Positions 1 through 23,029 of a DNA stretch of 23,029 bases are shown here, piece by piece (position 1 is the stretch's first letter; every line of letters starts with the position of its first letter). The stretch lies in IMG/VR virus record IMGVR_UViG_2703718857_000002; one strand, 5' to 3'. The notes beneath the pieces were generated by a model. That model saw nothing but the letters and a program-made list of their open reading frames with translations. It was not told where the DNA came from and searched no databases. The stretch comes from a virus. Its lineage: Duplodnaviria > Heunggongvirae > Uroviricota > Caudoviricetes. Position numbers and translations under genes: made by a program.

Positions 1-549
1 TCAGCTAGCTGGAAACTTTTTATACAGAGTTGAGAGCCCTACTCCATACGTTTTTGATACGCTTTGTCGTGATTCACCGGTTGCCATCCGCTCCCCCATT
101 TCCCGCCATTGCTCATCCGTGAACTTAGGCCTGCGACCACCAACTCGCCATTTTGCCCTGGCTACGGCCAGCCCTGCTAAGGTACGTTCGCTATTAAGAT
201 CAGATTCATATTGTGCTGCGGAAAGGATGTTACGAAAGTTATAGCGGCCGCTGGCTGTTTTGAGATCCACGCCATCGGTAATACTGCGGAAGTTGATACC
301 CTTTTCCTGTAACTGCTGGAACATCAACAGCGCATGCAGAACGTTGCGGCCTATCCTGTCCAGCTTCCAGACCACCAGTTCATCCCCCGGCTGCATAGTG
401 GCGATCAGCCGTTTTAGAACCGGCCGATTCGATTTCCTCCCGCTGGCATGCTCTTCAAAAATTTTCTCACAACCCGCTGACTTGAGCGCCGTTAGTTGCA
501 ATTCAGTGTCCTGGTGGTTTGTTGATACTCGGGCATAACCGTAAATCAT
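1..549 (-). CDS. Serine recombinase of the DNA-invertase (Hin/Gin/Cin/Pin) family, 182 aa
   Basis: Complete ORF: ATG at 549..547, stop TGA at 3..1. N-terminus MIYGYARVSTNHQD carries the catalytic-serine motif of small serine recombinases; C-terminal HTH (SVSKTYGVGLSTLYKKF). AGGAGAA Shine-Dalgarno lies within the upstream palindrome. Family assignment is from established knowledge of the family. Confidence 0.9.
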   Translation of the reverse strand: MIYGYARVSTNHQDTELQLTALKSAGCEKIFEEHASGRKSNRPVLKRLIATMQPGDELVVWKLDRIGRNVLHALLMFQQLQEKGINFRSITDGVDLKTASGRYNFRNILSAAQYESDLNSERTLAGLAVARAKWRVGGRRPKFTDEQWREMGERMATGESRQSVSKTYGVGLSTLYKKFPAS

Positions 550-740: not shown

Positions 741-977
741 ATGGTCGAGGTGCGGTTACGCCGCCGAGGTATCGATACAATTGTGTTATGTGGGATCTCG
801 ACCAATATCGGTGTTGAATCCACCGCCCGCAATGCCTGGGAACTTGGCTTTAATCTGGTGATTGCCGAAGACGCCTGTAGTGCCGCCAGCGCCGAGCAAC
901 ACAATAACAGCATTAATCATATCTACCCGCGCATCGCCCGTGTGCGTAGCGTGGAAGAGATCCTTCACGCGTTATGA
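741..977 (+). pseudogene. 3' fragment of an isochorismatase-family hydrolase gene (yecD-like), about 78 codons
   Basis: Translation ...[39 protein letters not shown]... matches the conserved Cys-containing core of isochorismatase-like hydrolases. In-frame homology begins only around nt 744 (stop in frame at 711..713); upstream sequence is in a different frame and unrelated, so the gene is 5'-truncated or frameshifted. Confidence 0.6.
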
Positions 978-2710: not shown

Positions 2711-4840
2711 TTACACCCACCCTAATAATTGAAATTTCTGGTAAATAAATTCAGCGTTTACGTCCGCGCCAGCCTGCAATGCATATTCAGGGGCGTTAGA
2801 TGTTTCTTTCGATTGGCTAGGATGCAGTCCGTCATACTTCAATGAAGTTGGAGGGATATCATTTCCAAAGTCAGAAACGTCCTGAGAATATGCTGGATTA
2901 TAGTTGTTTACGAAGTTTTCTCTCATATCAACACTATCAATTTCGCACCATAACTCAGGGTATTTCTTTTTAATCATGCTGTTTGATAACATGACGTTTG
3001 CATAACCTGCTGATCCACGGGGCTCAACACTGCTGTTAAAATCAGGCAGGATAATAACCTTCTGCCCAAGAGATTTAAGGTATTCAACTACACCAATAGT
3101 GTCGCTGAGAACCTGCATTGACTGGCTAATATTATTCCTTCCCATCCAGAAAATATTTATACATTCAGGGTGAAGAGGGAAAGATGTTCCTGCCGGAATT
3201 CCTCCGGTAATAGCACCAGTGGTCACCGGATCGCAAATGAATGGCACGGCAACAGGCACGTTAACCGCATCACCAGATGCATCACGTGTGAATGTGGCAT
3301 TAGTTCCATCCCATGAAAAATTGCCTGGAATGCCAGCCAGAGAACCGTGGAACGGCGTCGATGCTGCGGCGTTGGCAAAATAACTCAGTGGCCCCGGGTT
3401 TGCCGGAGAAAGAGTTACCGAACCGCTGGCAGGAATGCTGCCGCCAACTGGAACGTAATACGCTCTGCGCCCACCCTGAGCAGCAGCTGTGCCAACGCTT
3501 GTGCGTGAGCTTTTGCCAAAGTTATAGGCCGTGTAGCCGGTTAGCTCCTGCAGGTGTGTCAGCATACGGGGGTTATCAACCATTGAATGGCCCCACCCGC
3601 AAATGATCGGCCTGGACATTACAGAGTGCTCAGTCAGATCATTGATATAGCAATAATACTGCCCACCCGGTGCGCGATTAGTCTCCCTGTCCGATTGCCA
3701 GATAACCTTATCACCATCAACGCGTGGCAAGGTTTCATTACTGGATGTATTGGTTACACGAACCTGCTGACCTGTATCGCGATCAAACAGGAAAATCTGC
3801 TCATAGCCTTCTTTCTCTTCGCTAAATGCAATGTAATCAGGCTGACCTGAATTTGTCAGGTCCGATGATTTCAGCGACTCGATAACAACCAGGTTTTCAG
3901 ATGTGGATGCAGAAATGTATCCACTATCTGCATACTCATCAGGTGAGAGAAACGTTACTGACTCTGGAAGAGGTGATAATGCGTCAGTAACACCCTTTAC
4001 CTCTGTAAAATCGCTTCCTTCAATTACCGCATCGCCAACAACAATTTTGCTAAAATAAATGGTGGTGCCTTTAATGCCAACAATAATTCTATTGTTTTCA
4101 GAAAAAGTTGCTGAGTCATACCCTGAATCCGAAAATTCAGATATATCGACAAAAGTCGAAGCCTGTAAAAAAGGAACGATTCCAAGAAGGCTCTGCCCGG
4201 AAATTAAAATGTCGTTTCCTGAAAGGATTTCAGCAGCGAATTGATCTGCGCTGATTTCCCCCGCTCTGATTTTTTGGAAAAACCACTCGACACCTTTCCT
4301 GGATAGTAGTATTTTTTTATTTTCATCTAGTATAGCCTCTTCCACCCCAGAATCTTTATATTCATCAGGAGGAAAGAACTCTGACGCCTGTGTTATATTT
4401 AACAAAGGAGAGTAGGGATCAATAGCATCATCTACATACTTCTTAGATGGCATTTTTCTACCGGTGGGCTCAAGAGTGCCACCATTGTTAATTACTTCAA
4501 TAGCCAGCGCGCTATCGTCAGGGCTGCGGTAATACGTGGTAGAACCCACCGGGATATTCGCTATATCCGCCTGCGCCGCTGCCAGCGTCATGTATTGCCG
4601 GCTGAGAGGGATCAGGTTTTGGCGGGCTTCATCAATAACAGCGTCGGTAGCAGCTGCCATTTTTTTAGTAGCCCCAATTATCGTATCCCGGGCGTTACCA
4701 AAACGATCTATAAAAGTATCGCTTTCGCTGTTCAGGAAATCATCGTACGCCAGGGCGTTATCATTCAGATCCTTCATGCTATTTGAAGGTCTTGGATTGC
4801 CGGTATTATATCTTTTGTCCATACCTGTTCCTGTCTTCAT
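2711..4840 (-). CDS. Large protein (about 709 aa) with internal beta-rich repeats and a C-terminal SGNH/GDSL-like hydrolase motif set; putative receptor-binding esterase
   Basis: Long ORF; preferred start ATG 4840 or 4822 (the latter has AGGAACAGG upstream), since the first ATG at 4891 has no RBS. Residues about 165-400 hold at least 4 repeats with recurring (S/P)xDEYxDSGY...SEN. The C-terminal half has GHSM, FGKSS, GRNN and DGLHP in the order of SGNH blocks I, II, III and V. No signal peptide. Confidence 0.6.
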   Translation of the reverse strand: MKTGTGMDKRYNTGNPRPSNSMKDLNDNALAYDDFLNSESDTFIDRFGNARDTIIGATKKMAAATDAVIDEARQNLIPLSRQYMTLAAAQADIANIPVGSTTYYRSPDDSALAIEVINNGGTLEPTGRKMPSKKYVDDAIDPYSPLLNITQASEFFPPDEYKDSGVEEAILDENKKILLSRKGVEWFFQKIRAGEISADQFAAEILSGNDILISGQSLLGIVPFLQASTFVDISEFSDSGYDSATFSENNRIIVGIKGTTIYFSKIVVGDAVIEGSDFTEVKGVTDALSPLPESVTFLSPDEYADSGYISASTSENLVVIESLKSSDLTNSGQPDYIAFSEEKEGYEQIFLFDRDTGQQVRVTNTSSNETLPRVDGDKVIWQSDRETNRAPGGQYYCYINDLTEHSVMSRPIICGWGHSMVDNPRMLTHLQELTGYTAYNFGKSSRTSVGTAAAQGGRRAYYVPVGGSIPASGSVTLSPANPGPLSYFANAAASTPFHGSLAGIPGNFSWDGTNATFTRDASGDAVNVPVAVPFICDPVTTGAITGGIPAGTSFPLHPECINIFWMGRNNISQSMQVLSDTIGVVEYLKSLGQKVIILPDFNSSVEPRGSAGYANVMLSNSMIKKKYPELWCEIDSVDMRENFVNNYNPAYSQDVSDFGNDIPPTSLKYDGLHPSQSKETSNAPEYALQAGADVNAEFIYQKFQLLGWV

Positions 4841-4862
4841 CTTTTCAATGAAGCAATTAAGA

Positions 4863-4891
4863 TTGACGACCCGCCCCTTCAGGGCTAACAT
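4863..4891 (+). promoter_or_regulatory. Candidate sigma70 promoter for the regulator/acyltransferase operon
   Basis: TTGACG (4863..4868), 17-bp spacer, TAACAT (4886..4891), about 30 bp upstream of the ATG at 4924. The spacer contains a small GCCC...GGGC inverted repeat. Read by eye, not scored. Confidence 0.35.
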
Positions 4892-4923
4892 CGCCTTACG
4901 TGTTTAAACGGTTAAGTAAGAGA

Positions 4924-5187
4924 ATGATTTTAATAAATAAATACACTCCTCCAACGCAGGAAGATTTAGCCAGACTGAAATCCGCAATAAACTACTCCGG
5001 AAACCAAATGGCAGGGCTCGCAGGTGTAGCCAGCGATAGCCAATGGCGGAAATACACTGGCGGAGAGAGCCCCAGGGTAATGTCAAGACACATACTGTTT
5101 TATATTGCAGCTCAGCTTGTTCTGTCTGATGAGCAACTTAACAATGTAATAAATAAAATGCGCGATATTGGCGCGGAGATAAAATAA
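4924..5187 (+). CDS. Small XRE-type helix-turn-helix protein, 87 aa; putative regulator of the downstream acyltransferase
   Basis: ATG at 4924 with AAGAG-type Shine-Dalgarno (the ORF track starts at GTG 4900). Segment ...GNQMAGLAGVASDSQWRKYTGGESPRVMSRHILFYIAAQL... fits an XRE-like HTH pattern. Its stop overlaps the acyltransferase ATG (TAATG). Confidence 0.55.
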   Translation: MILINKYTPPTQEDLARLKSAINYSGNQMAGLAGVASDSQWRKYTGGESPRVMSRHILFYIAAQLVLSDEQLNNVINKMRDIGAEIK

Positions 5188-6278
5188 TGCTTGGCCTAAT
5201 AAGGTTTTTTTTGGCATCGTGCGTCATTGCTTTTCACTTAACGGCTCGCATACCTGCACTTGGCAACTTTGCAGTGAATTGCTTCTATGTTATCAGTGGT
5301 TTTTTAATAACATACATTTTGCATGAAACATACAAGTTCAACTTCTCTATGTTTTGGAAAAATAGAATACTGAGGTTATTCCCGGCATATATATTTTTTC
5401 TCGTCATGGGCTTTCTTATTATAAAATTAATTCCATCCGCAAAGGAATTCCACTCAAACTGGACAGGCAATTTCTTACCTGGAGATTTATTAGGAAACCT
5501 CTTAATCTTCCCCTGGGCTTTCCTTTCTGATAATGCTGTAGCAAATCCATTCGGTGCCTTTTCATCCATTTATCACTTTGCTATTGATGGTAATAGATTC
5601 AGAATAGTCACATCATCATGGTCAGTGGGTGTTGAGATAACATGTTATTTTTTATTGTGGCTTTTCATAGCCCGAAATAAATTTACAGCCATTACGTCGA
5701 TTCTGCTTTCACTGCTTTATCATGCTTACGTATATGTAGTACACCATTCTTTTGATATGGCGTATTTCCCATTCCTTGCTGCAACACTTCCTTTTAGCAT
5801 GGGTTCTCTGGGTTATTTTGCCCATAGAAAGTTCAAAGCTATGTATCTTTCTCCACACAAAGCTTTTTTAATAACATTTATTTGCATCGGGATTTTTATT
5901 ACCAATTGGTATTTATATACAATTAATGCATTAGGTCAGTACAACATAATACTTTACTACACCAATAATGTAATAGCATTGTTTACAACCCTGGTATTAT
6001 TAAAAATAAAGACAAACATACATCTTGAGAAAATACTCAAGTGGTTTGGTGACCTGGCCTATCCAATTTTTCTTTGTCAATATTTTGGTGGATTTCTAGC
6101 ATGGCTTGCTATTGGTGGTGAAAATCGTGGCTTATCCATCTTTTTATTAGGCTACCCAATATCAATTGCACTTGGGATCGTTTGTGTAATATTAATAGAC
6201 AAGCCACTAATTAAAATTAGAGCAAAAATAAGGGCGGACGCTCAAAGCAAAAATAATCAGGAAAACTCTTCAAGGTAA
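5187..6278 (+). CDS. Acyltransferase family 3 (AT3) integral membrane protein, 363 aa; probable O-antigen/LPS O-acetyltransferase (Oac/OafA-like)
   Basis: N-terminal His in the first hydrophobic segment (...VIAFHLTARIPALG...) and the VNCFYVISGFLIT motif typical of AT3 acyltransferases; multiple hydrophobic segments throughout. Gene body is visibly AT-rich, roughly one-third G+C by eye. The LPS substrate is inferred from the prophage tail-fibre context. Confidence 0.8.
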   Translation: MLGLIRFFLASCVIAFHLTARIPALGNFAVNCFYVISGFLITYILHETYKFNFSMFWKNRILRLFPAYIFFLVMGFLIIKLIPSAKEFHSNWTGNFLPGDLLGNLLIFPWAFLSDNAVANPFGAFSSIYHFAIDGNRFRIVTSSWSVGVEITCYFLLWLFIARNKFTAITSILLSLLYHAYVYVVHHSFDMAYFPFLAATLPFSMGSLGYFAHRKFKAMYLSPHKAFLITFICIGIFITNWYLYTINALGQYNIILYYTNNVIALFTTLVLLKIKTNIHLEKILKWFGDLAYPIFLCQYFGGFLAWLAIGGENRGLSIFLLGYPISIALGIVCVILIDKPLIKIRAKIRADAQSKNNQENSSR

Positions 6279-7042
6279 ACTAAACCATTCGCTCCTTTTC
6301 CTGATGAATAGTTACCATTCCCCCCGGCACCACCTGAGCCGGGGAAACCGCCATCATCGCCAGAACTACCGAAGTGGCCATTGCCACCCGTTGATGAAAA
6401 TGCAGATCCTCCAGCCCCGCCAATAAAAGCATCAGAACCATAATACAGACCACCTTGAGATATTCCGCCAGTAATATTTAAAATGTTCCCGCCACTTCCG
6501 ATACCTCCAGCAGGAACTGTAGCCCCGCCACCACTCCCTCCAGTAGCTGAGATTAAACTCCCGAACCTTGTATCACCACCATTCCCACCTTTAGACGAGA
6601 CACCAGCAGCAACAGCACTGCCACCAGTACCTATCGTCACAGATATAGTTTCGTTATCAGAAATATTAAATAACCCTTCCGAAAATCCACCAGCACAACC
6701 TCCAGATGCGCCCACACTAACTGGAGCATTCTGGCCACCTCCCCCCGCTCCCCAAACTTTCACCCGCACTCTTTTCGTCCCTTTAGTTGGAGTGTAAGTC
6801 CCTGACTTAGTAAAGGTGACAATATTAAGCAGGCGACCGCCACCAATCGCTTTAAGAACCTGTGAATCATCATCAGGATCAAGCTCAAGCCCCGCGCCCT
6901 CAACAACGTTTACCAGCTCACGCTGAAAGGTATTCATCATCTCAGCATTAATTATTGTCGGTGAAATACCATTAGCGACATTACCATTAGTGTATTCACC
7001 ATTAGCATCAGCGGTGTCAGTTGTACTGCCAACTTTTCTCAT
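6257..7042 (-). CDS. Glycine-rich tail fibre protein, 261 aa
   Basis: ATG at 7042..7040 with AAGAAGG Shine-Dalgarno. Lies immediately downstream of the gp48-like gene, where Mu-type fibres sit. N-terminal region ...ISPTIINAEMMNTFQRELVNVVEGAGLELD... is followed by a GGxGG-rich low-complexity C-terminal half. Its 3' end overlaps the acyltransferase 3' end by 22 bp (convergent). Confidence 0.7.
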   Translation of the reverse strand: MRKVGSTTDTADANGEYTNGNVANGISPTIINAEMMNTFQRELVNVVEGAGLELDPDDDSQVLKAIGGGRLLNIVTFTKSGTYTPTKGTKRVRVKVWGAGGGGQNAPVSVGASGGCAGGFSEGLFNISDNETISVTIGTGGSAVAAGVSSKGGNGGDTRFGSLISATGGSGGGATVPAGGIGSGGNILNITGGISQGGLYYGSDAFIGGAGGSAFSSTGGNGHFGSSGDDGGFPGSGGAGGNGNYSSGKGANGLVYLEEFS

Positions 7043-9327: not shown

Positions 9328-9905
9328 ACCTGACTCTCTGTTTTTTCGCTTATGATCGTGCTATCGCCGGACTGAACTTTTTTAACGTCATGGTCATGAT
9401 CGTTGTGAGCATCCCGCAGCGCTTTGAGCGTTGAATTGTTCGTCTCGCAGTTATCGATGATGTCACCCGTCACCAGGAGTTTGGGGGTAACCAGCTTTAC
9501 CTGTTCCGTTGCCGTCGCGGTGATGTTTCTGGCATTATTGATCTCTACATCTTTGCCTTTCGCATCAATGAAAATTCCCTCCTCGGTCAGATGAATATTC
9601 ATCCCCTGCTGGTTATAGACCACGGTTTCGCCTGGCTTAAGCCCGGTATACCGGAAGCTTTGATGGTTAGAGGCAATGACGACAGGACTGGAGCGGTCCC
9701 CGCCGAGAAAGGCAATAAGCACATCCGATCCCGCCGGTAACCCCGATGAAAAACCAAAATCAGAGAGCCGTGGGGCGCTGGCCACTTCCAGCGGAGTCTG
9801 GTACTGGATTTCCTGCACAACCCCGCTATCTTTCTGCGTGGTAATACGGCCAATGCCCAGCATGCCGGCGATGCGCGTGGCCGATTTCTTTAAATTTTGA
9901 TTCAT
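9324..9905 (-). CDS. Baseplate central spike / assembly protein V (Mu gp45 / P2 gpV-like), 193 aa
   Basis: Size, synteny, and a C-terminal His-rich motif HNDHDHD (nt 9387..9407) of the kind that coordinates metal at the tip of contractile-tail spikes. Confidence 0.7.
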   Translation of the reverse strand: MNQNLKKSATRIAGMLGIGRITTQKDSGVVQEIQYQTPLEVASAPRLSDFGFSSGLPAGSDVLIAFLGGDRSSPVVIASNHQSFRYTGLKPGETVVYNQQGMNIHLTEEGIFIDAKGKDVEINNARNITATATEQVKLVTPKLLVTGDIIDNCETNNSTLKALRDAHNDHDHDVKKVQSGDSTIISEKTESQV

Positions 9906-10777
9906 TGGTTTAGTCCGGGTATTTGCTGGTAGAAAGCATAAGGCTGGACAGCGAAAGCCTCCGGGGGCATCAGATAAAGGCGCGCATGGGTGCCGTCACT
10001 GTCTCTGATATAAGTCACCTCTGCGATAAGCAATTCGGTGTCAGGCAGCTGCAGACTCGGGATGTTGACCGGGATAAGCGTATTCGGCTCCCATAATTTC
10101 CCGGATTTATCGCGCCAGGAATCAATCGTCACCGTTAACTGACGGGAACGGCCGTATCGGCGGTTCATCTCCCAGTCAATCGCTCGCTGAGCCTGTTGTG
10201 AAGCCATCAGTGTACTTTCAACAATAATGATCCGTTTTCGGTAACGCATACTGGCCGCCTCAGGATCGCGGGCCGTCGCCAGCGTCACCGAATCATAAGC
10301 CGTATCTGGCGAGAATCCTGCAATCGGCGAAATGCTCATCGATACGCCGACGTAATCAGAAAAGCGGTCAGCCATCGAACGGCGGTAATAAGCCTGTTCG
10401 ATATTTACCCCTTCTGCGATACCGCTGGCCGCGCGCTTTGTCCCCACCCGGGTCAGAAATAAGTTACCGTCAGGCTGATCGTAATAAAGCAATGCCGACC
10501 AGCGGGAGACACGATCAAGTATTTCCTGTGGCGATTCCCCCCAGTTCAGGGAAAATTGCGGAACTTTCACCAGATCATCAACGTCTGTACTTACGCCAAT
10601 GTTGTAATGGGATGCGAGGCGGGAGGCTATATCAAGCGCATTACTGTTATTGATGACGTTATTTGGCCATTCAGCAGAGCAATCAACGAGATCTGCGCAC
10701 TTACTGCGGCCTGAGGCTCTGACTTCATGGCGCGAACGGGAAATAGCAGGCGACCAGTCATCAACATACCCCGTCAC
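9902..10777 (-). pseudogene. 5'-truncated baseplate hub gene (Mu gp44 / P2 gpD family), 291 codons retained
   Basis: Frame opens at a GTG at 10777 that overlaps the portal stop codon in a different frame. C-terminal region ...LLIAEVTYIRDSDGTHARLYLMPPEAF resembles the conserved end of gpD-family proteins. Full-length homologues are about 380 aa (from memory), implying loss of roughly 90 N-terminal residues. Confidence 0.5.
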
Positions 10778-11931
10778 TACCAGGTACCGGATGAGAAATT
10801 ACGCAATACTGCAGACTCGAAAACCTCAAAGTTGCTGTAAGGGCGGGCAGCGTTGACCGTTGTTATTCTCTCCCCTGGATAAAGGATCGGCATACGGGCG
10901 CCATTCTGCAGCGTCAAACGGCGATCATTATGAAACTCTGCACGACCATCCTGGTATGCTCCCAATCCCTCTTCGAAGTTTTCCCCCAGCGCGGACTGGA
11001 TCATTTCGGGATCGTATGGAGACTCAATATACGCGGCGAAGATAGCATTCAGAATTGCTGCTTCCAGCTCGCTCTGGTCGTACTTCACCAGCATCTTCAG
11101 ACGTTGCACTACTGGAGTCAGAATGCCATTCCCCCGATGCTGAGCTCCACGCTCATGGTCAAAGTCGTGCACAACGTGCGGGCGCCCCCATGCGGTTTCG
11201 CGCGGGATTCGTCGCCATGTCATTGTTTTGGCGCCACTCCACCAGTCACCGATATGTGCTTCACGTATGTGATAAGCCACAGGTGCGCCGTCAGCATCAA
11301 TTTCAACGCCGCCGCGGATATTCGGCATATCAAAATTCTGCTGCGGGTTACTGAGTCTGTCGGGATCAACAACCTGCACCGTCGTGGCATAACGCCCCTT
11401 ACCTGGTCCAAGGCGATCGGTGCGATACTGAAGCACCATCAGGGCATCGCCATCAATCAGCTTGTGGCGAAAGGCCAGACGCAACATTTGTGGAACGGTT
11501 AGCTTGCGCTCAACGTCACAATAACGGCCTGTGTCGTATGCCCAGGTTCTCCAGTGGGAAGCGAGTGCTTTTCCGTACTCTTCCGCCCATACTGCGTCAA
11601 AACTTTTATTACCTGTCATCATCCGTAATACACGATAGTCAGGCTTCATGATCGGACGGAAATTGGCGCCGACCGCATTATCAAGCAGGCGAGTTATGGC
11701 ACCATTGGCCCATCCATCATTTCGGACCAGATCCCGCGCACGGGAAACTATACGGTCACGGTAGATATTAATTTCGTTATCCGGTGACCATAGTGCGGGC
11801 TGCCAGTTCGCCAGTTGATCGCTGAAGGAATCCGCGGCGTCATATGGCACCCGGCTACCGCCCGTCAACATGCTGGGTTTTGGTGCCTGATAAGGTCTCC
11901 CGTCAGGACCAAGGATTTGCACTTTATTCAT
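10777..11931 (-). pseudogene. 3'-truncated portal gene (lambda gpB family), 384 codons retained
   Basis: N-terminus MNKVQILGPDGRPY, the VERKLT motif and ...AILNAIFAAYIES... parallel lambda gpB; the ORF stops at ...NFEVFESAVLRNFSSGTW, where lambda-family portals continue for about 140 more residues (from memory). Start overlaps the gpW-like stop by 1 nt. Confidence 0.65.
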
Positions 11932-14981: not shown

Positions 14982-15071
14982 AAAATAAAAGTTTGTAGCT
15001 AGGAAAACACTGCGGCGCGCAATGCCCGTGCCTTACAAAAGGCTCAGGAAGGACCCAAAACCCCTGGGGGG

Positions 15072-15713
15072 CTATCTGGCCGAGCTGATCGCCTCAGCAA
15101 TCGCCTGGTGCAGCGCTGAGGGTAACAATGCGTTGGCCATGGTGTTTGCCCTGTCCATATAGCCGAGCGTTGGTTTGACTGGAAGCGAGTCTCCAAACCG
15201 AATGAGCAATTTTGGTGCAGGTTGCTTAATCTTGTCTCTGCGCGTGCCGTTCGGAGAACGTTTTGCCCGTTTCTTCCCTTTTTTGGTTTTCGGCTTTTTT
15301 CTCTGCCACACGGCATTCACGCCACCAACGTCACCAATAAATACGTTTGGCTTTGCTTTGAGCTGAGAGAGCTTATTACGCGGCAGGTTGCCGTATTTAT
15401 TAAGCTTTATGTCTTTCGGGTTAAGCAAAGCACTACCATTAAGCTTGTGCTCTCCGCCGAACTCGAAGGGTTCAAGGTAACCAGCAGCAGTATCACGAAC
15501 AAACACCTTCGCACGAAGGCTGTTTTTCCTGGCACCAACTGACCCAACCGATTTAACTGTAAAAGGTGTTGGATTATCCAGATTCCGCTCAAATGCTGTT
15601 TTTTGGGCCGCTTCTATCTGGCGAACCACTTTAGTCATAGCCTGGGCAGTCGCAAACGGTATTTGCTTCTGCAGCTGTCTTAACTGACTGGAAAGGTCCT
15701 TAAGCGTTGCCAT
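15072..15713 (-). CDS. Hypothetical basic protein, 213 aa
   Basis: ATG at 15713 with AGGTGG Shine-Dalgarno. Contains a strongly basic tract QRKKPKTKKGKKRAKRSPNGTRRDK. Located between the lysis cassette and cos; no family recognised. Confidence 0.55.
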   Translation of the reverse strand: MATLKDLSSQLRQLQKQIPFATAQAMTKVVRQIEAAQKTAFERNLDNPTPFTVKSVGSVGARKNSLRAKVFVRDTAAGYLEPFEFGGEHKLNGSALLNPKDIKLNKYGNLPRNKLSQLKAKPNVFIGDVGGVNAVWQRKKPKTKKGKKRAKRSPNGTRRDKIKQPAPKLLIRFGDSLPVKPTLGYMDRANTMANALLPSALHQAIAEAISSAR

Positions 15714-19981: not shown

Positions 19982-20230
19982 TCAGACCGTTGATTTCATA
20001 TTATCAGAAGGTGGGGTTACCCGGTAGCCGAGACGGTGAATAAACTGCATAAAACCATTAGGAGTAAAGACCTCTTCATCATCCAGCAAAGGCCGCATAG
20101 AAACCATGCCATTGACGCGATAAATTAGATGCCTGCCCGATGAAGGAAAGCTAAACACCACGCAGCCGTCAGACCTTCTTACAATGTCATACCAGTTGTC
20201 TTCTGACGTTTGCAAAGCTGAATCACTCAC
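19982..20230 (-). CDS. Small hypothetical protein, 82 aa
   Basis: ORF with a GTG start and a somewhat distant AGGGAG; sits between the DinI-like gene and the nin genes. Confidence 0.4.
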   Translation of the reverse strand: MSDSALQTSEDNWYDIVRRSDGCVVFSFPSSGRHLIYRVNGMVSMRPLLDDEEVFTPNGFMQFIHRLGYRVTPPSDNMKSTV

Positions 20231-20347
20231 ATTTATGTTCTCCCTTCGAGCGACTAACAGACGCGATTAAAGATTGTCGGCAGCAGCATCAGAGGGTTAC
20301 GCAAATTGCGGTATTCTGAAAAATGCGCGCCAGCCTTAAGCGCAATT

Positions 20348-20581
20348 CTAATAAAACCAGTCGTCAGCGCTTTCCCAGGTATCCTGGAGGATTGATTCAA
20401 TTTTCTTTTTATCGTCCTTGTCACCACCAAAAACACTTAACCCATCGGCCCCGGCACGGCGGATTGTGAGCCTGCAATTGTCATAGTGATCATTCAGGCG
20501 CTTAAGCAGTTCTTTCTCCAGTGCTGGTACTGCGCCTTTAGGAAGTTCTTTCATGCGATCAATGGTTAATTCAACTTTCAT
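20348..20581 (-). CDS. DinI-family protein, 77 aa
   Basis: MKVELTIDR...LSVFGGDKDDKKKIESILQDTWESADDWFY closely parallels E. coli DinI, including the ...ILQETWESADDWF C-terminus. ATG at 20581 with GGGGG upstream; a LexA box lies 19 bp upstream. Confidence 0.8.
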   Translation of the reverse strand: MKVELTIDRMKELPKGAVPALEKELLKRLNDHYDNCRLTIRRAGADGLSVFGGDKDDKKKIESILQDTWESADDWFY

Positions 20582-20599
20582 AATGGCCCCCATTGCATG

Positions 20600-20619
20600 T
20601 ACTGTGTTTTTATACAGTA
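20600..20619. promoter_or_regulatory. LexA (SOS) box TACTGTGTTTTTATACAGTA
   Basis: CTGT-N8-ACAG with palindromic TACTGT/ACAGTA ends; 17 of 20 positions match consensus. Immediately upstream of the DinI-like gene. Confidence 0.75.
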
Positions 20620-20680
20620 TACCTATGCGCGGAAATGATCAACGTTTTAAGAGCACAAATTGTTAATTTTCTGTCAGTAG

Positions 20681-20709
20681 TAAAAAAAGAAAACCCGCCG
20701 TAGCGGGTT
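20681..20709 (-). terminator. Rho-independent terminator (minus-strand orientation) upstream of the DinI-like promoter
   Basis: Minus-strand hairpin AACCCGC-TACG-GCGGGTT followed by TTTCTTTTTTT. Would insulate the DinI-like promoter from minus-strand read-through coming from the integrase side. Confidence 0.5.
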
Positions 20710-20842
20710 GAATTAGCGATGTTTTATTACGCCGCTATTTGTTTCTGCTGACAAAGCTCCTGTATCAAACCCGAAACAGCAGATCGCTTATCTGGCACTC
20801 AAATACTGGGCGCGCCTGTATTGCCCTGCAGTTGTTCTTGGT

Positions 20843-21319
20843 GTGTACACCCCTGATGAGATTGAACAGCGCACAGAAAAAGAGATCAACCCAACGCCGC
20901 AACGCGTTAGCCTGGCTGATATCTCAGGTGACACCGTCACAACCACGCAAAGCGCACAGGAATCGTCGGTAAATGTCGACTCTCTTGCCGATGATTTCCG
21001 CGAACGCATCGAATCTGCTCAGGACGTGGATAGCGCCAAATCGCTGCGTGCCGACATTGAAACGGCGAAAGCTACGCTGGGATCCGCACTATTCACCGAG
21101 CTGAAAAACAAAGCCGTAAAGCGTTATTACCTAGTGGATGCACGCAACAAGGTTGAGGAGGCTATTAAATCCCTGCCCCAGCCCGACGAGCCGCATGCAG
21201 CCGAACGGTTCGCTGAAGCCGAGCGCATGCTTGCATCTTCAAAGCGTCACTTAGGCGATGAACTGCACGATCAATTCAGCATCACCCTGGCGGATATGAA
21301 ACCGGAATACGTGGCCTGA
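20843..21319 (+). CDS. Hypothetical acidic protein, 158 aa from GTG; possibly the 3' remnant of a longer gene
   Basis: The frame is open from 20717 with no ATG before the GTG at 20843, and the upstream in-frame translation (...IAYLALKYWARLYCPAVVLG...) looks protein-like. No family recognised. Confidence 0.4.
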   Translation: MYTPDEIEQRTEKEINPTPQRVSLADISGDTVTTTQSAQESSVNVDSLADDFRERIESAQDVDSAKSLRADIETAKATLGSALFTELKNKAVKRYYLVDARNKVEEAIKSLPQPDEPHAAERFAEAERMLASSKRHLGDELHDQFSITLADMKPEYVA

Positions 21320-21357
21320 CGAGACCGGGAGGGGTAACCCTCCCTCAAGGAGATTAT

Positions 21358-21600
21358 ATGCGACTGATCAATCGAGGAAGTAAGCAATCACCTTTAGCTC
21401 GCCAAGCATGCGACATCGCGCTGGCAGCTCACTTGCAAACATATGGCGACTATGGGCGAAGCAAGATGAAAGAGACTTATACGGTGAAGGTTGAAGGCGT
21501 GAAAGTCTGGGTGGAGGTGGTGAACCGAAAGGCGAGCTACGTGGCCACAGCGATGACCGGCATGCGCCGTCTCCGCTCCCTGCCCGGGCAGGTTGGTTGA
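21358..21600 (+). CDS. Hypothetical protein, 80 aa
   Basis: Strong AAGGAG Shine-Dalgarno 7 nt upstream of the ATG; no family recognised. Confidence 0.5.
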   Translation: MRLINRGSKQSPLARQACDIALAAHLQTYGDYGRSKMKETYTVKVEGVKVWVEVVNRKASYVATAMTGMRRLRSLPGQVG

Positions 21601-21641
21601 AAAAGATTTTGAATGGCCCGAACGGGCAACTGGAGAGAGCT

Positions 21642-21839
21642 ATGGATGATATTTTGGTAACGTCAGACCTGACCAGTCGCTACAAAATTTCACGCAAAAC
21701 CCTTTGGTCATGGCAAAGTGCAGACACAATGCCTCGGGGCTTCGTATGCCCGTTCCCACCCCCTGACTGGCCCGGCAACCCTAACCGCTGGCGCTCTGAG
21801 TCAATCAAAGAGTGGGAGGATAAAAAGAAGATAAATTAA
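21642..21839 (+). CDS. AlpA/Xis-like small DNA-binding protein, 65 aa
   Basis: [25 protein letters not shown]...[11 protein letters not shown] fits the AlpA/excisionase-type HTH pattern. ATG at 21642 with GGAGAGAG Shine-Dalgarno (the ORF track starts at TTG 21597). 3' end overlaps the integrase 3' end (convergent). Confidence 0.55.
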
Positions 21840-23029
21840 CTGAAGGGCTCTCCGATGATCTCTTCAAGATGGCTCTGCCAAACGCGGAGCCAGTGTTTCT
21901 GATCATCGATATAGTCATGAAGGTTGTAATGCGCCATAACCCCCACCATCTGATGCCCGAGCAGCTTTTCAATTACGTGCGGCGGGCAACCTAACTCAGA
22001 GAGATTTGTGGCTATCGTCCGCCTCATATCATGAAGCGACCACTCTGCCATACCTGTTCCATTCCAAATAGAACGGGCGTAATTGGATGCCACAGGTGAA
22101 TGAACGGGCGAATCTTTGATCCCGCCATCAATTTTACGTTGTGAAGTCACCAGGTGATTGGTGTTTATTTTCTTGAGGTGATTTCTGACCAGGTTAACGG
22201 CGGCGTCTGAGAGTCCCCTTCTAATATGTACCCGAGTTTTATAACTGCCCGCAGGCACGACCCACTCATTATCATCCAATCGAAACCATGATCTCTCACT
22301 AAGTCGAATCTCAGCCGTACGGCATCCGGTAAGCATAATAAATTTCACCAGGAAAACGGACTCTATCGACATATGGCTTTTCAACCACTGATAGATTTTG
22401 CGCAGATCGTCATCGTCCATCCTGCGAGTTCTCTTTTTAGGCTTTTGCCCGACATCAGATGGCAGTAATCCCTCGAGTGGGTTTGAGGCGATCACACTTC
22501 TGTTAACGCAGAACCTAAACGCCCGTTTGCACAGCGAAAGCATGTAATGAGCCATCACCCTGCTTTCTATAGAATCGAAGACGTTGATCCAGTGCATTTT
22601 CGCTGTGTTATCGACTTTGACATTCTTCATCGGTTCGGCGATATGTTTCTCAAACACCTGGCGATAGTAATCGACTTTAACTAGCCCGTTAGCGATACAG
22701 TGCCTTTCAATCCAGTAATTGAACGCTTCGGCAACGGACATCGCTTCCTGTCGGGTCTGCTTATCCAGCTTCACCTGCTCTCGCGGATCCAGTCCCTCAG
22801 TTAACCAGTTTCTGAATTGTTGGCGACGCTCTCTTGCCTGGGTGATACTCATTGCAGGATAATCACCAACATTGAGTTTTACCGCTTTACCGGCCCAGCG
22901 ATACCGATAGAAAAATGATATTTTTCCGGCCTGGCTGATTCTGGCGTTGAGCCCGTGCGAATCAGAAATAATCTCGATATCATCTCTTTTCTTGCCGAGC
23001 GCCTTCCTGAGCTTTGTGTCGGTGATCAT
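21836..23029 (-). CDS. int: Tyrosine integrase, P4-type, 397 aa; start coincides with the window edge
   Basis: N-terminal arm-binding region (...[32 protein letters not shown]...) and C-terminal catalytic region (...[11 protein letters not shown]...[18 protein letters not shown] with Arg, His-x-x-Arg and Tyr). The ATG sits at the last 3 nt of the window, so a slightly longer N-terminus cannot be excluded. Confidence 0.9.

Follow-up and report, generated by a model that had tools for sequence, protein, structure and literature searches.

Acyltransferases that consist of the acyltransferase-3 (AT3) domain alone, such as Sf6 Oac, OacB-D and the enzyme of PhiV10, are encoded on temperate phages; AT3-only phage acetylases alter the O-antigen and block adsorption (PMC9558356, PMC7556043). 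The Salmonella prophage protein OafB is a fusion of AT3 and SGNH domains whose modification of the O-antigen protects against the phage's own tailspike (PMC9558356). In Serratia phage vB_SspM_BZS1 (hereafter BZS1), baseplate genes are followed by the fibre gene p23, the antisense genes p26-p25-p24, the esterase fibre gene p27, and p28; its authors proposed that the O-antigen is acetylated in the lysogen and deacetylated by the fibre, and they reported p25-p26 pairs beside acetyltransferases in Serratia prophages while having 'no clue' about p25 and p26 themselves (PMC7556043). Here we analyze a related locus on a 23,029-nt stretch of Caudoviricetes DNA (IMG/VR record IMGVR_UViG_2703718857_000002; "the window" hereafter denotes this whole stretch). 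It carries a cassette of two genes encoding an 87-amino acid (aa) helix-turn-helix (HTH) protein and a 363-aa AT3 protein. We think it reasonably likely that the cassette is a lysogenic-conversion module (moron) from a temperate phage whose baseplate is of the Mu type, in which an autorepressed HTH-AT3 operon would acylate a surface glycan of the lysogen.

The cassette lies antisense between two tail-fibre genes (Table 1). The HTH open reading frame (ORF) runs from an ATG at 4924 to a stop codon at 5185-5187. A GTG at 4900 is an alternative upstream start that would give 95 aa, but 30 aligned relatives begin with MRLI, matching MILI in the window, and we therefore place the start at 4924. The AT3 ORF follows with a 1-nt overlap (junction TAATG), and its 3' end converges on that of the 261-aa fibre gene with an overlap of 22 bp; a preliminary description of the window had given both genes and both overlaps correctly. 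On the left, the divergent fibre ORF (726 aa, from 4891) is over-extended by 23 codons and most likely starts at M24 (position 4822), which is also the RefSeq start, leaving a divergent intergenic region of 101 bp (4823-4923).

Table 1. Position and supporting evidence of the cassette features and the flanking fibre genes in the window.
Feature	Position	Strand	Evidence
Predicted sigma-70-type promoter TTGACG-N17-TAACAT	4863..4891	+	Scan; alignment with the family promoter; comparison with sister cassette L003
Operator-like element CCGCCCCTTCAGGGCTA in the promoter spacer	4871..4887	.	Position of the family palindrome; 3 mismatches
87-aa XRE/Cro-type HTH protein, putative autorepressor	4924..5187	+	phrog_20491, AlphaFold2, Foldseek, hhalign, covariation
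363-aa AT3-only integral-membrane acyltransferase (predicted)	5187..6278	+	PF01757, phrog_3333 O-acetyltransferase, motifs, hydropathy
261-aa glycine-rich distal tail-fibre protein	6257..7042	-	PF21722 Gly_rich_2; phrog_863 and further families of tail fibres
703-aa tail fibre, transcribed away from the cassette	2711..4822	-	Adaptor N-terminus, TolB-like propeller repeats, C-terminal SGNH-type esterase domain

The layout is that of BZS1: a Mu-type baseplate, a distal fibre, antisense HTH and AT3 genes, a fibre with an esterase domain and a further minus-strand gene. The AT3 gene of BZS1 is p24, and its HTH protein, p25, shares 66% identity with that of the window. The two loci differ in that BZS1 has a 57-aa membrane-protein gene (p26) and a terminator-like hairpin before the HTH gene, both absent from the window; in that their AT3s and the enzymatic parts of their fibres are not detectably related; and in that BZS1 was isolated as a phage and its genome is complete, whereas the window prophage is defective. 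A megablast search of positions 4600-6500 against phage genomes gave no match, so that a protein search was needed to find BZS1, and an Rfam search of the window cassette and the BZS1 leader was likewise without a match.

Like Sf6 Oac, OacB-D and the PhiV10 enzyme, the window AT3 is encoded on a temperate phage and transcribed against the structural genes, but no dedicated regulator gene is mentioned in the published descriptions of those cassettes that we consulted. With its 363 aa it is AT3-only, as Sf6 Oac is, unlike the AT3-SGNH fusions OafA and OafB (PMC9558356). The gtr and oafB operons are phase-variable through Dam and OxyR, while the window has an AT3 gene alone, a putative regulator encoded in cis, and no GATC within 4823-4923 (the nearest, at 4705 and 4768, lie inside the fibre gene); a search for tandem repeats also found none. 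The absence of a Dam/OxyR architecture, noted in the preliminary description, is thus upheld, and phase variation of the known kinds is unlikely.

In its predicted structure, the 87-aa protein is an XRE/Cro-type HTH fold, and its family is absent from Pfam. An AlphaFold2 model built from 134 diverse sequences has five helices (residues 12-21, 26-33, 38-45, 55-66 and 69-81) and high confidence scores (predicted local distance difference test, pLDDT, 93.2; predicted template modelling score, pTM, 0.79). An initial model from 31 close sequences (pLDDT 63) was discarded and redone with the 134, as its Foldseek matches (histones) were meaningless. The recognition helix comprises S39 followed by the invariant QWRKYTGG, and the window protein retains all 16 invariant residues of the family. 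Nearly all of the top 50 Foldseek matches in the PDB are XRE-type HTH proteins (probability up to 1.00, E from 0.014 upward), among them the HTH domain of AcrIF24 (probability 1.0, 28% identity), Aca10, the phage 186 regulator and Aca1 (also solved with palindromic DNA), as well as HigA, C.AhdI, C.Kpn2I and lambda cI. In an hhalign comparison of the family with 434 Cro, 434 cI, P22 C2 and SinR, whose sequences were entered by hand, helices 1-4 are in register (E 4e-4). The XRE-type assignment made earlier is therefore right as to fold (pLDDT 93 and the Foldseek matches), though without a Pfam match above threshold.

The protein belongs to phrog_20491 (E 9e-30), whose function entry in PHROGs is "unknown". 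The family comprises at least 1,350-1,450 clusters at 90% identity and ranges over Enterobacterales, Pseudomonas, Burkholderiales and Chromobacterium. A scan with NCBIfam gave RstR below threshold (E 0.065, 13.5 bits against a cut-off of 80), and the PADLOC defence models matched neither the HTH protein nor the AT3, the fibre or the small membrane protein of the relatives. Most of the RefSeq E. coli records inspected either lack the 87-aa gene or shorten it, an annotation gap that looks systematic: the gene is unannotated in E. coli HS and in a genome identical to the window over 4600-6500 (records compared, L001, L002 and L102), and the record of strain JNQH498 calls it as a 59-aa 'hypothetical protein'.

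The control region is best read through the relatives. A promoter scan of the window finds TTGACG (4863-4868), a 17-bp spacer and TAACAT (4886-4891), although by itself the scan performs at chance level (4 sites vs. 6.2 expected). The relatives share a promoter of the form TTGACA-N17-TAnnAT, with which that of the window aligns at equal spacing, and the spacer of this family promoter is filled by a 17-bp palindrome, TAGnnCC-N3-GGnnCTA (written out, TAGCACCAAAGGGGCTA). Allowing up to 2 mismatches, 57 of 89 loci have the palindrome in the 500 nt that precede the HTH gene, where chance would yield fewer than 2. Nearly all of these loci place it between a TTGACA-like box and TAnnAT, and the spacer is 17 bp wherever measured.

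The arms of the palindrome vary symmetrically among relatives, and this variation follows the recognition helix. Where the residue preceding QWRKY is S, N or Q, base 4 of the palindrome is C (34 of 35 loci); R goes with G (8 of 8 loci, plus Pantoea locus L030) and H with A (7 of 7). A divergent protein in phage PE067, with ARRWRDY in place of the family motif, has a TAGG-type palindrome whose inner bases are changed from CCC to CGG. Because it lies upstream of the transcription start, is symmetric and covaries with the recognition helix, the palindrome is best interpreted as the operator of a dimeric HTH protein. Co-inheritance and residue-to-base covariation thus make binding of a two-fold symmetric operator the best reading of the sequence data for the family as a whole. 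The corresponding element of the window, CCGCCCCTTCAGGGCTA, has a good right half of the C class, in agreement with S39, while its left half has lost the TA. Another operator-like site, at 15058-15074, lacks a promoter context and was set aside as a chance occurrence.

A sister cassette in E. coli (L003) has the order integrase-HTH-AT3 and retains a decayed stub of the 5' end of the fibre gene, which indicates that it derives from a window-like arrangement. Identity between the two is 90% over the promoter and leader, 61% over the stub, 83% over the HTH gene and 57% over the AT3 gene. The contrast between the promoter and leader and the adjoining stub argues that the control region is under constraint. 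The promoter called plausible in the preliminary description is therefore backed by the family alignment and by the identity to L003, not by the scan alone. The L003 HTH protein (gene at 6001-6264) carries W41C, G46S and G47N at otherwise invariant positions, and its operator is a better palindrome than that of the window; this regulator may be decaying.

Most relatives (e.g., locus L091 at 5706-6000 and the corresponding stretch in L006-L023, L095 and L099) have a longer unit, in which the promoter is followed by a conserved leader of ~50 nt with a hairpin (GCGGAAAGGCCGC), a gene for a membrane protein of ~57 aa (a coiled coil and a C-terminal transmembrane segment; phrog_6330/9071), a terminator-like hairpin, the HTH gene and then the cargo. 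This second hairpin, AAGCCCCGAAAGGGGCTTTTT, is of the intrinsic-terminator type and is found 10-15 nt ahead of the start of the HTH gene; it is operator-like, but with a 4-nt centre. The window copy has neither the family leader nor the membrane-protein gene (tblastn finds no homologue of it in the window) nor the terminator, and a leader of 32 nt separates its promoter from the HTH gene. Judged by this comparison, the window holds a reduced copy of the unit, its first gene missing and its operator half degenerate. A stop codon interrupts the small membrane-protein gene of Citrobacter (L006) and of Serratia liquefaciens (L015), yet their HTH gene is intact.

The cargo differs from relative to relative. 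AT3 genes are found in E. coli, Lonsdalea, Serratia and BZS1, a hexapeptide-repeat acetyltransferase in Salmonella (beside sopA), a WaaZ-type Kdo transferase in Citrobacter, GT2 and GT4 glycosyltransferases in Buttiauxella and S. arizonae, SGNH/GDSL esterases in Burkholderiales and phage phiE131, and a pilin-like gene with an acetyltransferase in phage PE067. Lambdoid prophages of Klebsiella oxytoca and Pantoea carry the unit between Q and the holin gene with no cargo at all. Genes downstream of the HTH gene that encode Photorhabdus nhaA, a recombinase, an enoyl-CoA hydratase, a ferredoxin and a pterin-binding enzyme were rejected as cargo and regarded as chromosomal neighbours or chance ORFs. 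Comparison with the relatives strongly supports a moron that carries a regulator of its own, in line with the dedicated small regulator of the earlier description.

Two further observations concern these relatives. In Salmonella enterica (L095-L098), the 194-aa hexapeptide-repeat acetyltransferase is followed by a gene of the HtrL/YibB family within a prophage remnant, and the HTH variant of these loci is present on 418 contigs. The cargo-free pair of membrane-protein and HTH genes (L099-L101, L009) is antisense inside the late transcript and could interfere with leaky late transcription.

By its sequence, the 363-aa protein is a member of the AT3 family, as had been claimed. It matches PF01757 with 57.9 bits (cut-off 31; E 1.2e-15), residues 4-336 aligning to positions 6-323 of the 326 in the profile, and falls in phrog_3333 (O-acetyltransferase). 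The motifs that define functional AT3 acetyltransferases are R/K-X10-H in the first transmembrane helix, FFXISG in the second and RXXR near the third, and both the Arg and the His of the first are essential in OafA (PMC7448272). The window protein has R6-FFLASCVIAF-H17, with the conserved Arg and His both in place, FYVISG at 33-38 (FFXISG type) and R60-I-L-R63 (RXXR). A Kyte-Doolittle plot has nine peaks of at least 1.4 and a weaker segment near residue 200, which gives 9-10 hydrophobic segments. The enzyme most likely moves an acyl group, probably acetyl, from cytoplasmic acyl-CoA to a surface glycan (e.g., the O-antigen); the acyl donor and acceptor, like a function in serotype conversion, are what we infer. 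Searches of the AT3 against phage genomes gave three weak matches only, and there was no match among PDB sequences.

These results suggest the following scheme. The sigma-70 promoter would drive a single bicistronic mRNA, from which the two proteins would be made by translational coupling through TAATG. A dimer of the HTH protein would bind the 17-bp palindrome in the spacer between the -35 and -10 boxes and repress its own promoter, keeping the polytopic membrane enzyme at a low level independent of copy number or dosage. The AT3 would in turn acylate a glycan on the surface of the lysogen, which would alter the receptor seen by phages, and the adjoining esterase-bearing fibre would fit an interplay of acetylation and deacetylation (PMC7556043, PMC13123978).

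The same logic of repression would apply as for Aca proteins on anti-CRISPR operons and C proteins on restriction-modification operons. The Aca proteins (Aca1, Aca10 and the HTH domain of AcrIF24) are the closest structures and the best PDB sequence matches of the window HTH protein. Aca proteins, small and of the HTH type, act through an inverted repeat to repress the strong promoter of a phage accessory operon, and their cargo is likewise varied. They differ in that the window cargo is glycan-modifying rather than anti-CRISPR and in that the window HTH gene stands upstream of its cargo; sequence similarity is marginal (E 0.14-0.5), and the protein is in no named Aca family. Whereas Aca genes share operons with anti-CRISPR genes, the partners here are genes for AT3, hexapeptide acetyltransferase, WaaZ, GT2, GT4 and SGNH proteins. 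The C proteins C.AhdI and C.Kpn2I are alike in fold and, under the proposed scheme, in the use of a small dimer on a palindrome of its own promoter to set the level of a potentially harmful co-transcribed enzyme, but there are no restriction-modification genes at the window locus. C proteins usually work from two operators and act as activators as well as repressors, while a single palindrome is seen here.

Several observations weigh against the autorepressed, glycan-acylating operon that we favor. About one third of the relatives lack the palindrome within 600 nt. Because the residue classes follow clades, the covariation may represent few independent events, perhaps 3-5. The element in the window has 3 mismatches to the palindrome, a level at which 8 matches were counted vs. 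7.7 expected, and autoregulation may be weak or lost in this copy. In sequence searches, the HTH protein matches Pfam HTH_31 below threshold (E 0.24, 12.2 bits against a cut-off of 27), and the family profile only grazes the AcrIF24 HTH domain, Aca3 and CapH among PDB sequences (E 0.14-0.55, the best at 0.14-0.25). As for the substrate, the AT3 is 24-48% identical to the AT3s of the relatives' cassettes, and tblastn (E 1e-5) detected no similarity to any characterised phage O-acetylase; the AT3 has no close characterised relative, and homology points to no substrate. Finally, since the prophage is defective, the link between the cassette and the esterase fibre may be historical.

Other explanations must be weighed against autorepression. 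The HTH protein could be an activator that binds the spacer in the manner of MerR or counters the terminator before its own gene, and it is true that the site lies where MerR-family activators bind and that the hairpin AAGCCCCGAAAGGGGCTTTTT, found before the HTH start in most relatives, resembles the operator. MerR promoters, however, typically have spacers of 19-20 bp, while this one has the optimal 17 bp and boxes near consensus; the fold matches the Cro, Aca and C-protein repressors and not MerR, and the window copy has no terminator. To judge from its sequence, the near-consensus family promoter needs no activator. We infer repression over activation from where the operator lies, from a spacer of 17 bp between boxes close to consensus and from the proteins nearest in fold, and consider activation quite improbable. 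It is also unlikely, though the arrangement lends the idea some substance, that the main target of the protein lies elsewhere, i.e., in the divergent esterase fibre, in late genes, or in genes of the host or of another prophage. The operator does fall in the 101-bp region that is common to the cassette and the divergent fibre gene, that of BZS1 is ~30-50 bp from the p27 start, and the lambdoid relatives carry their cargo-free unit between Q and holin, antisense to late transcription. Against this, the left neighbour varies (holin, fibre, DinI-like, integrase) while the series of promoter, palindrome and HTH gene is constant, and no second good operator was found in the window.

The cassette could also be a decaying remnant whose regulator no longer works and whose AT3 is constitutive or silent, with no current role. 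The defective prophage, the missing first gene of the ancestral unit, the half-degenerate operator, the mostly unannotated state of the 87-aa gene in RefSeq and the substitutions at invariant positions in the L003 sister HTH (W41C, G46S/G47N) all point in this direction. Yet both ORFs are intact, the window HTH protein keeps every invariant residue, the promoter is conserved, and 27 of 32 E. coli carriers share the cassette at 99% identity or more, which leaves decay only a small chance of being the right explanation. Autorepression of an HTH-AT3 operon remains the reading that we prefer.

The prophage itself is present in 32 out of the 5,426 complete genomes of E. coli, among them that of strain HS, which carries the same prophage type with a different deletion. 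The 27 complete carriers in which the cassette is so closely conserved include other defective prophages. Lambdoid Q, NinG and large terminase genes are present in the window, and the fibre genes come after a Mu-type baseplate (Baseplate_J, Mu Gp48). At 10777 (region 9902-11931), a lambda-family portal gene cut to 384 aa meets a truncated Mu gp44-like baseplate gene, on account of which we regard the prophage as defective; head, sheath, tube and tape-measure genes are missing from it. Between ~1900 and ~19950 the cassette is the sole plus-strand coding block, as described before, but the structural operon in which it had been placed is not intact, given the truncated portal and baseplate genes.

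The earlier claim that the cassette is markedly AT-rich relative to its flanks needs a similar qualification. The AT3 gene (GC content 0.352; GC at third codon positions, GC3, 0.33) is the most AT-rich gene of the region, whereas the HTH gene has a GC content of 0.428, and the flanking fibre genes are themselves low in GC3 (0.32 and 0.415, against 0.50-0.59 in the baseplate genes). The whole distal fibre block, rather than the cassette alone, is thus compositionally foreign. In the 261-aa fibre gene (GC 0.48, GC3 0.32), a foreign, AT-rich codon usage like that of AT3 is hidden by the glycine codons.

In the divergent fibre, the N-terminal 48 aa (counted from M24) are 75% identical to BZS1 p27, and only those residues match p27. 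Homology to solved tail-spike chains (9sij/9sim, E 4e-48) covers its last 295 aa, in which the GHS, GRN and DxLH blocks typical of SGNH hydrolases are kept, and RefSeq names the protein 'sialate O-acetylesterase' or 'SGNH/GDSL hydrolase'. This esterase domain suggests that acetyl groups on a surface glycan matter to the phage.

The ends of the window hold several other genes. A serine recombinase (1-549, minus strand; Resolvase and HTH_7) of about the size of Hin and Gin stands by a fragment of a host isochorismatase-family (yecD-like) gene (741-977, plus strand), suggesting a rearranged prophage boundary, and an S24-peptidase (UmuD-like) pair occupies 1242-1819. At the right end (19982-23029), beyond the DUF1367, NinG and Q genes, there are an integrase (21836-23029, minus strand) and several small plus-strand genes, one of them for a possible AlpA-like regulator (21597-21839); this region could be part of the prophage or of a second element.

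As an enzyme, the AT3 is ordinary, AT3 genes for conversion being familiar from phages, and BZS1 is a published precedent for the layout, with an uncharacterised regulator. Our literature searches returned no description of a portable promoter-operator-HTH unit, of its varied glycan-modifying cargo or of a recognition code, and nothing relevant on PDB 9SIJ/9SIM or on a characterised XRE autoregulator of such cassettes. A broader reading, for which we see the chances as evenly balanced, is that the 87-aa family represents unrecognised autorepressors like Aca and C proteins, which would form a plug-in platform for glycan-modifying genes with a recognition code readable from sequence. We hold with no more and no less confidence that this platform would serve temperate phages of beta- and gammaproteobacteria, combining a portable promoter-operator and, usually, a small membrane protein with interchangeable enzymes. 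The code may, with equal weight for and against, pair residue 39 (S/N/Q, R or H) with operator base 4 (C, G or A, respectively).

If this is true, the HTH gene would be a guilt-by-association marker for new receptor-modifying prophage genes, as Aca genes are for anti-CRISPRs, and would offer a simple protein-DNA recognition code. The locus would also be a worked example of acetylation by the lysogen against deacetylation by the virion fibre in competition between phage and host and between phages, a theme recently raised for Klebsiella prophages (PMC13123978). Serotype, vaccine targets and susceptibility to phages all change when surface sugars are O-acetylated by phage-borne enzymes. To our knowledge, the characterised phage O-acetylation cassettes are either unregulated or phase-variable. 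The locus described here suggests a third design, in which an autorepressor encoded in cis comes with a promoter-operator of its own, as part of a unit that recurs in two proteobacterial classes ahead of at least six kinds of glycan-modifying genes.

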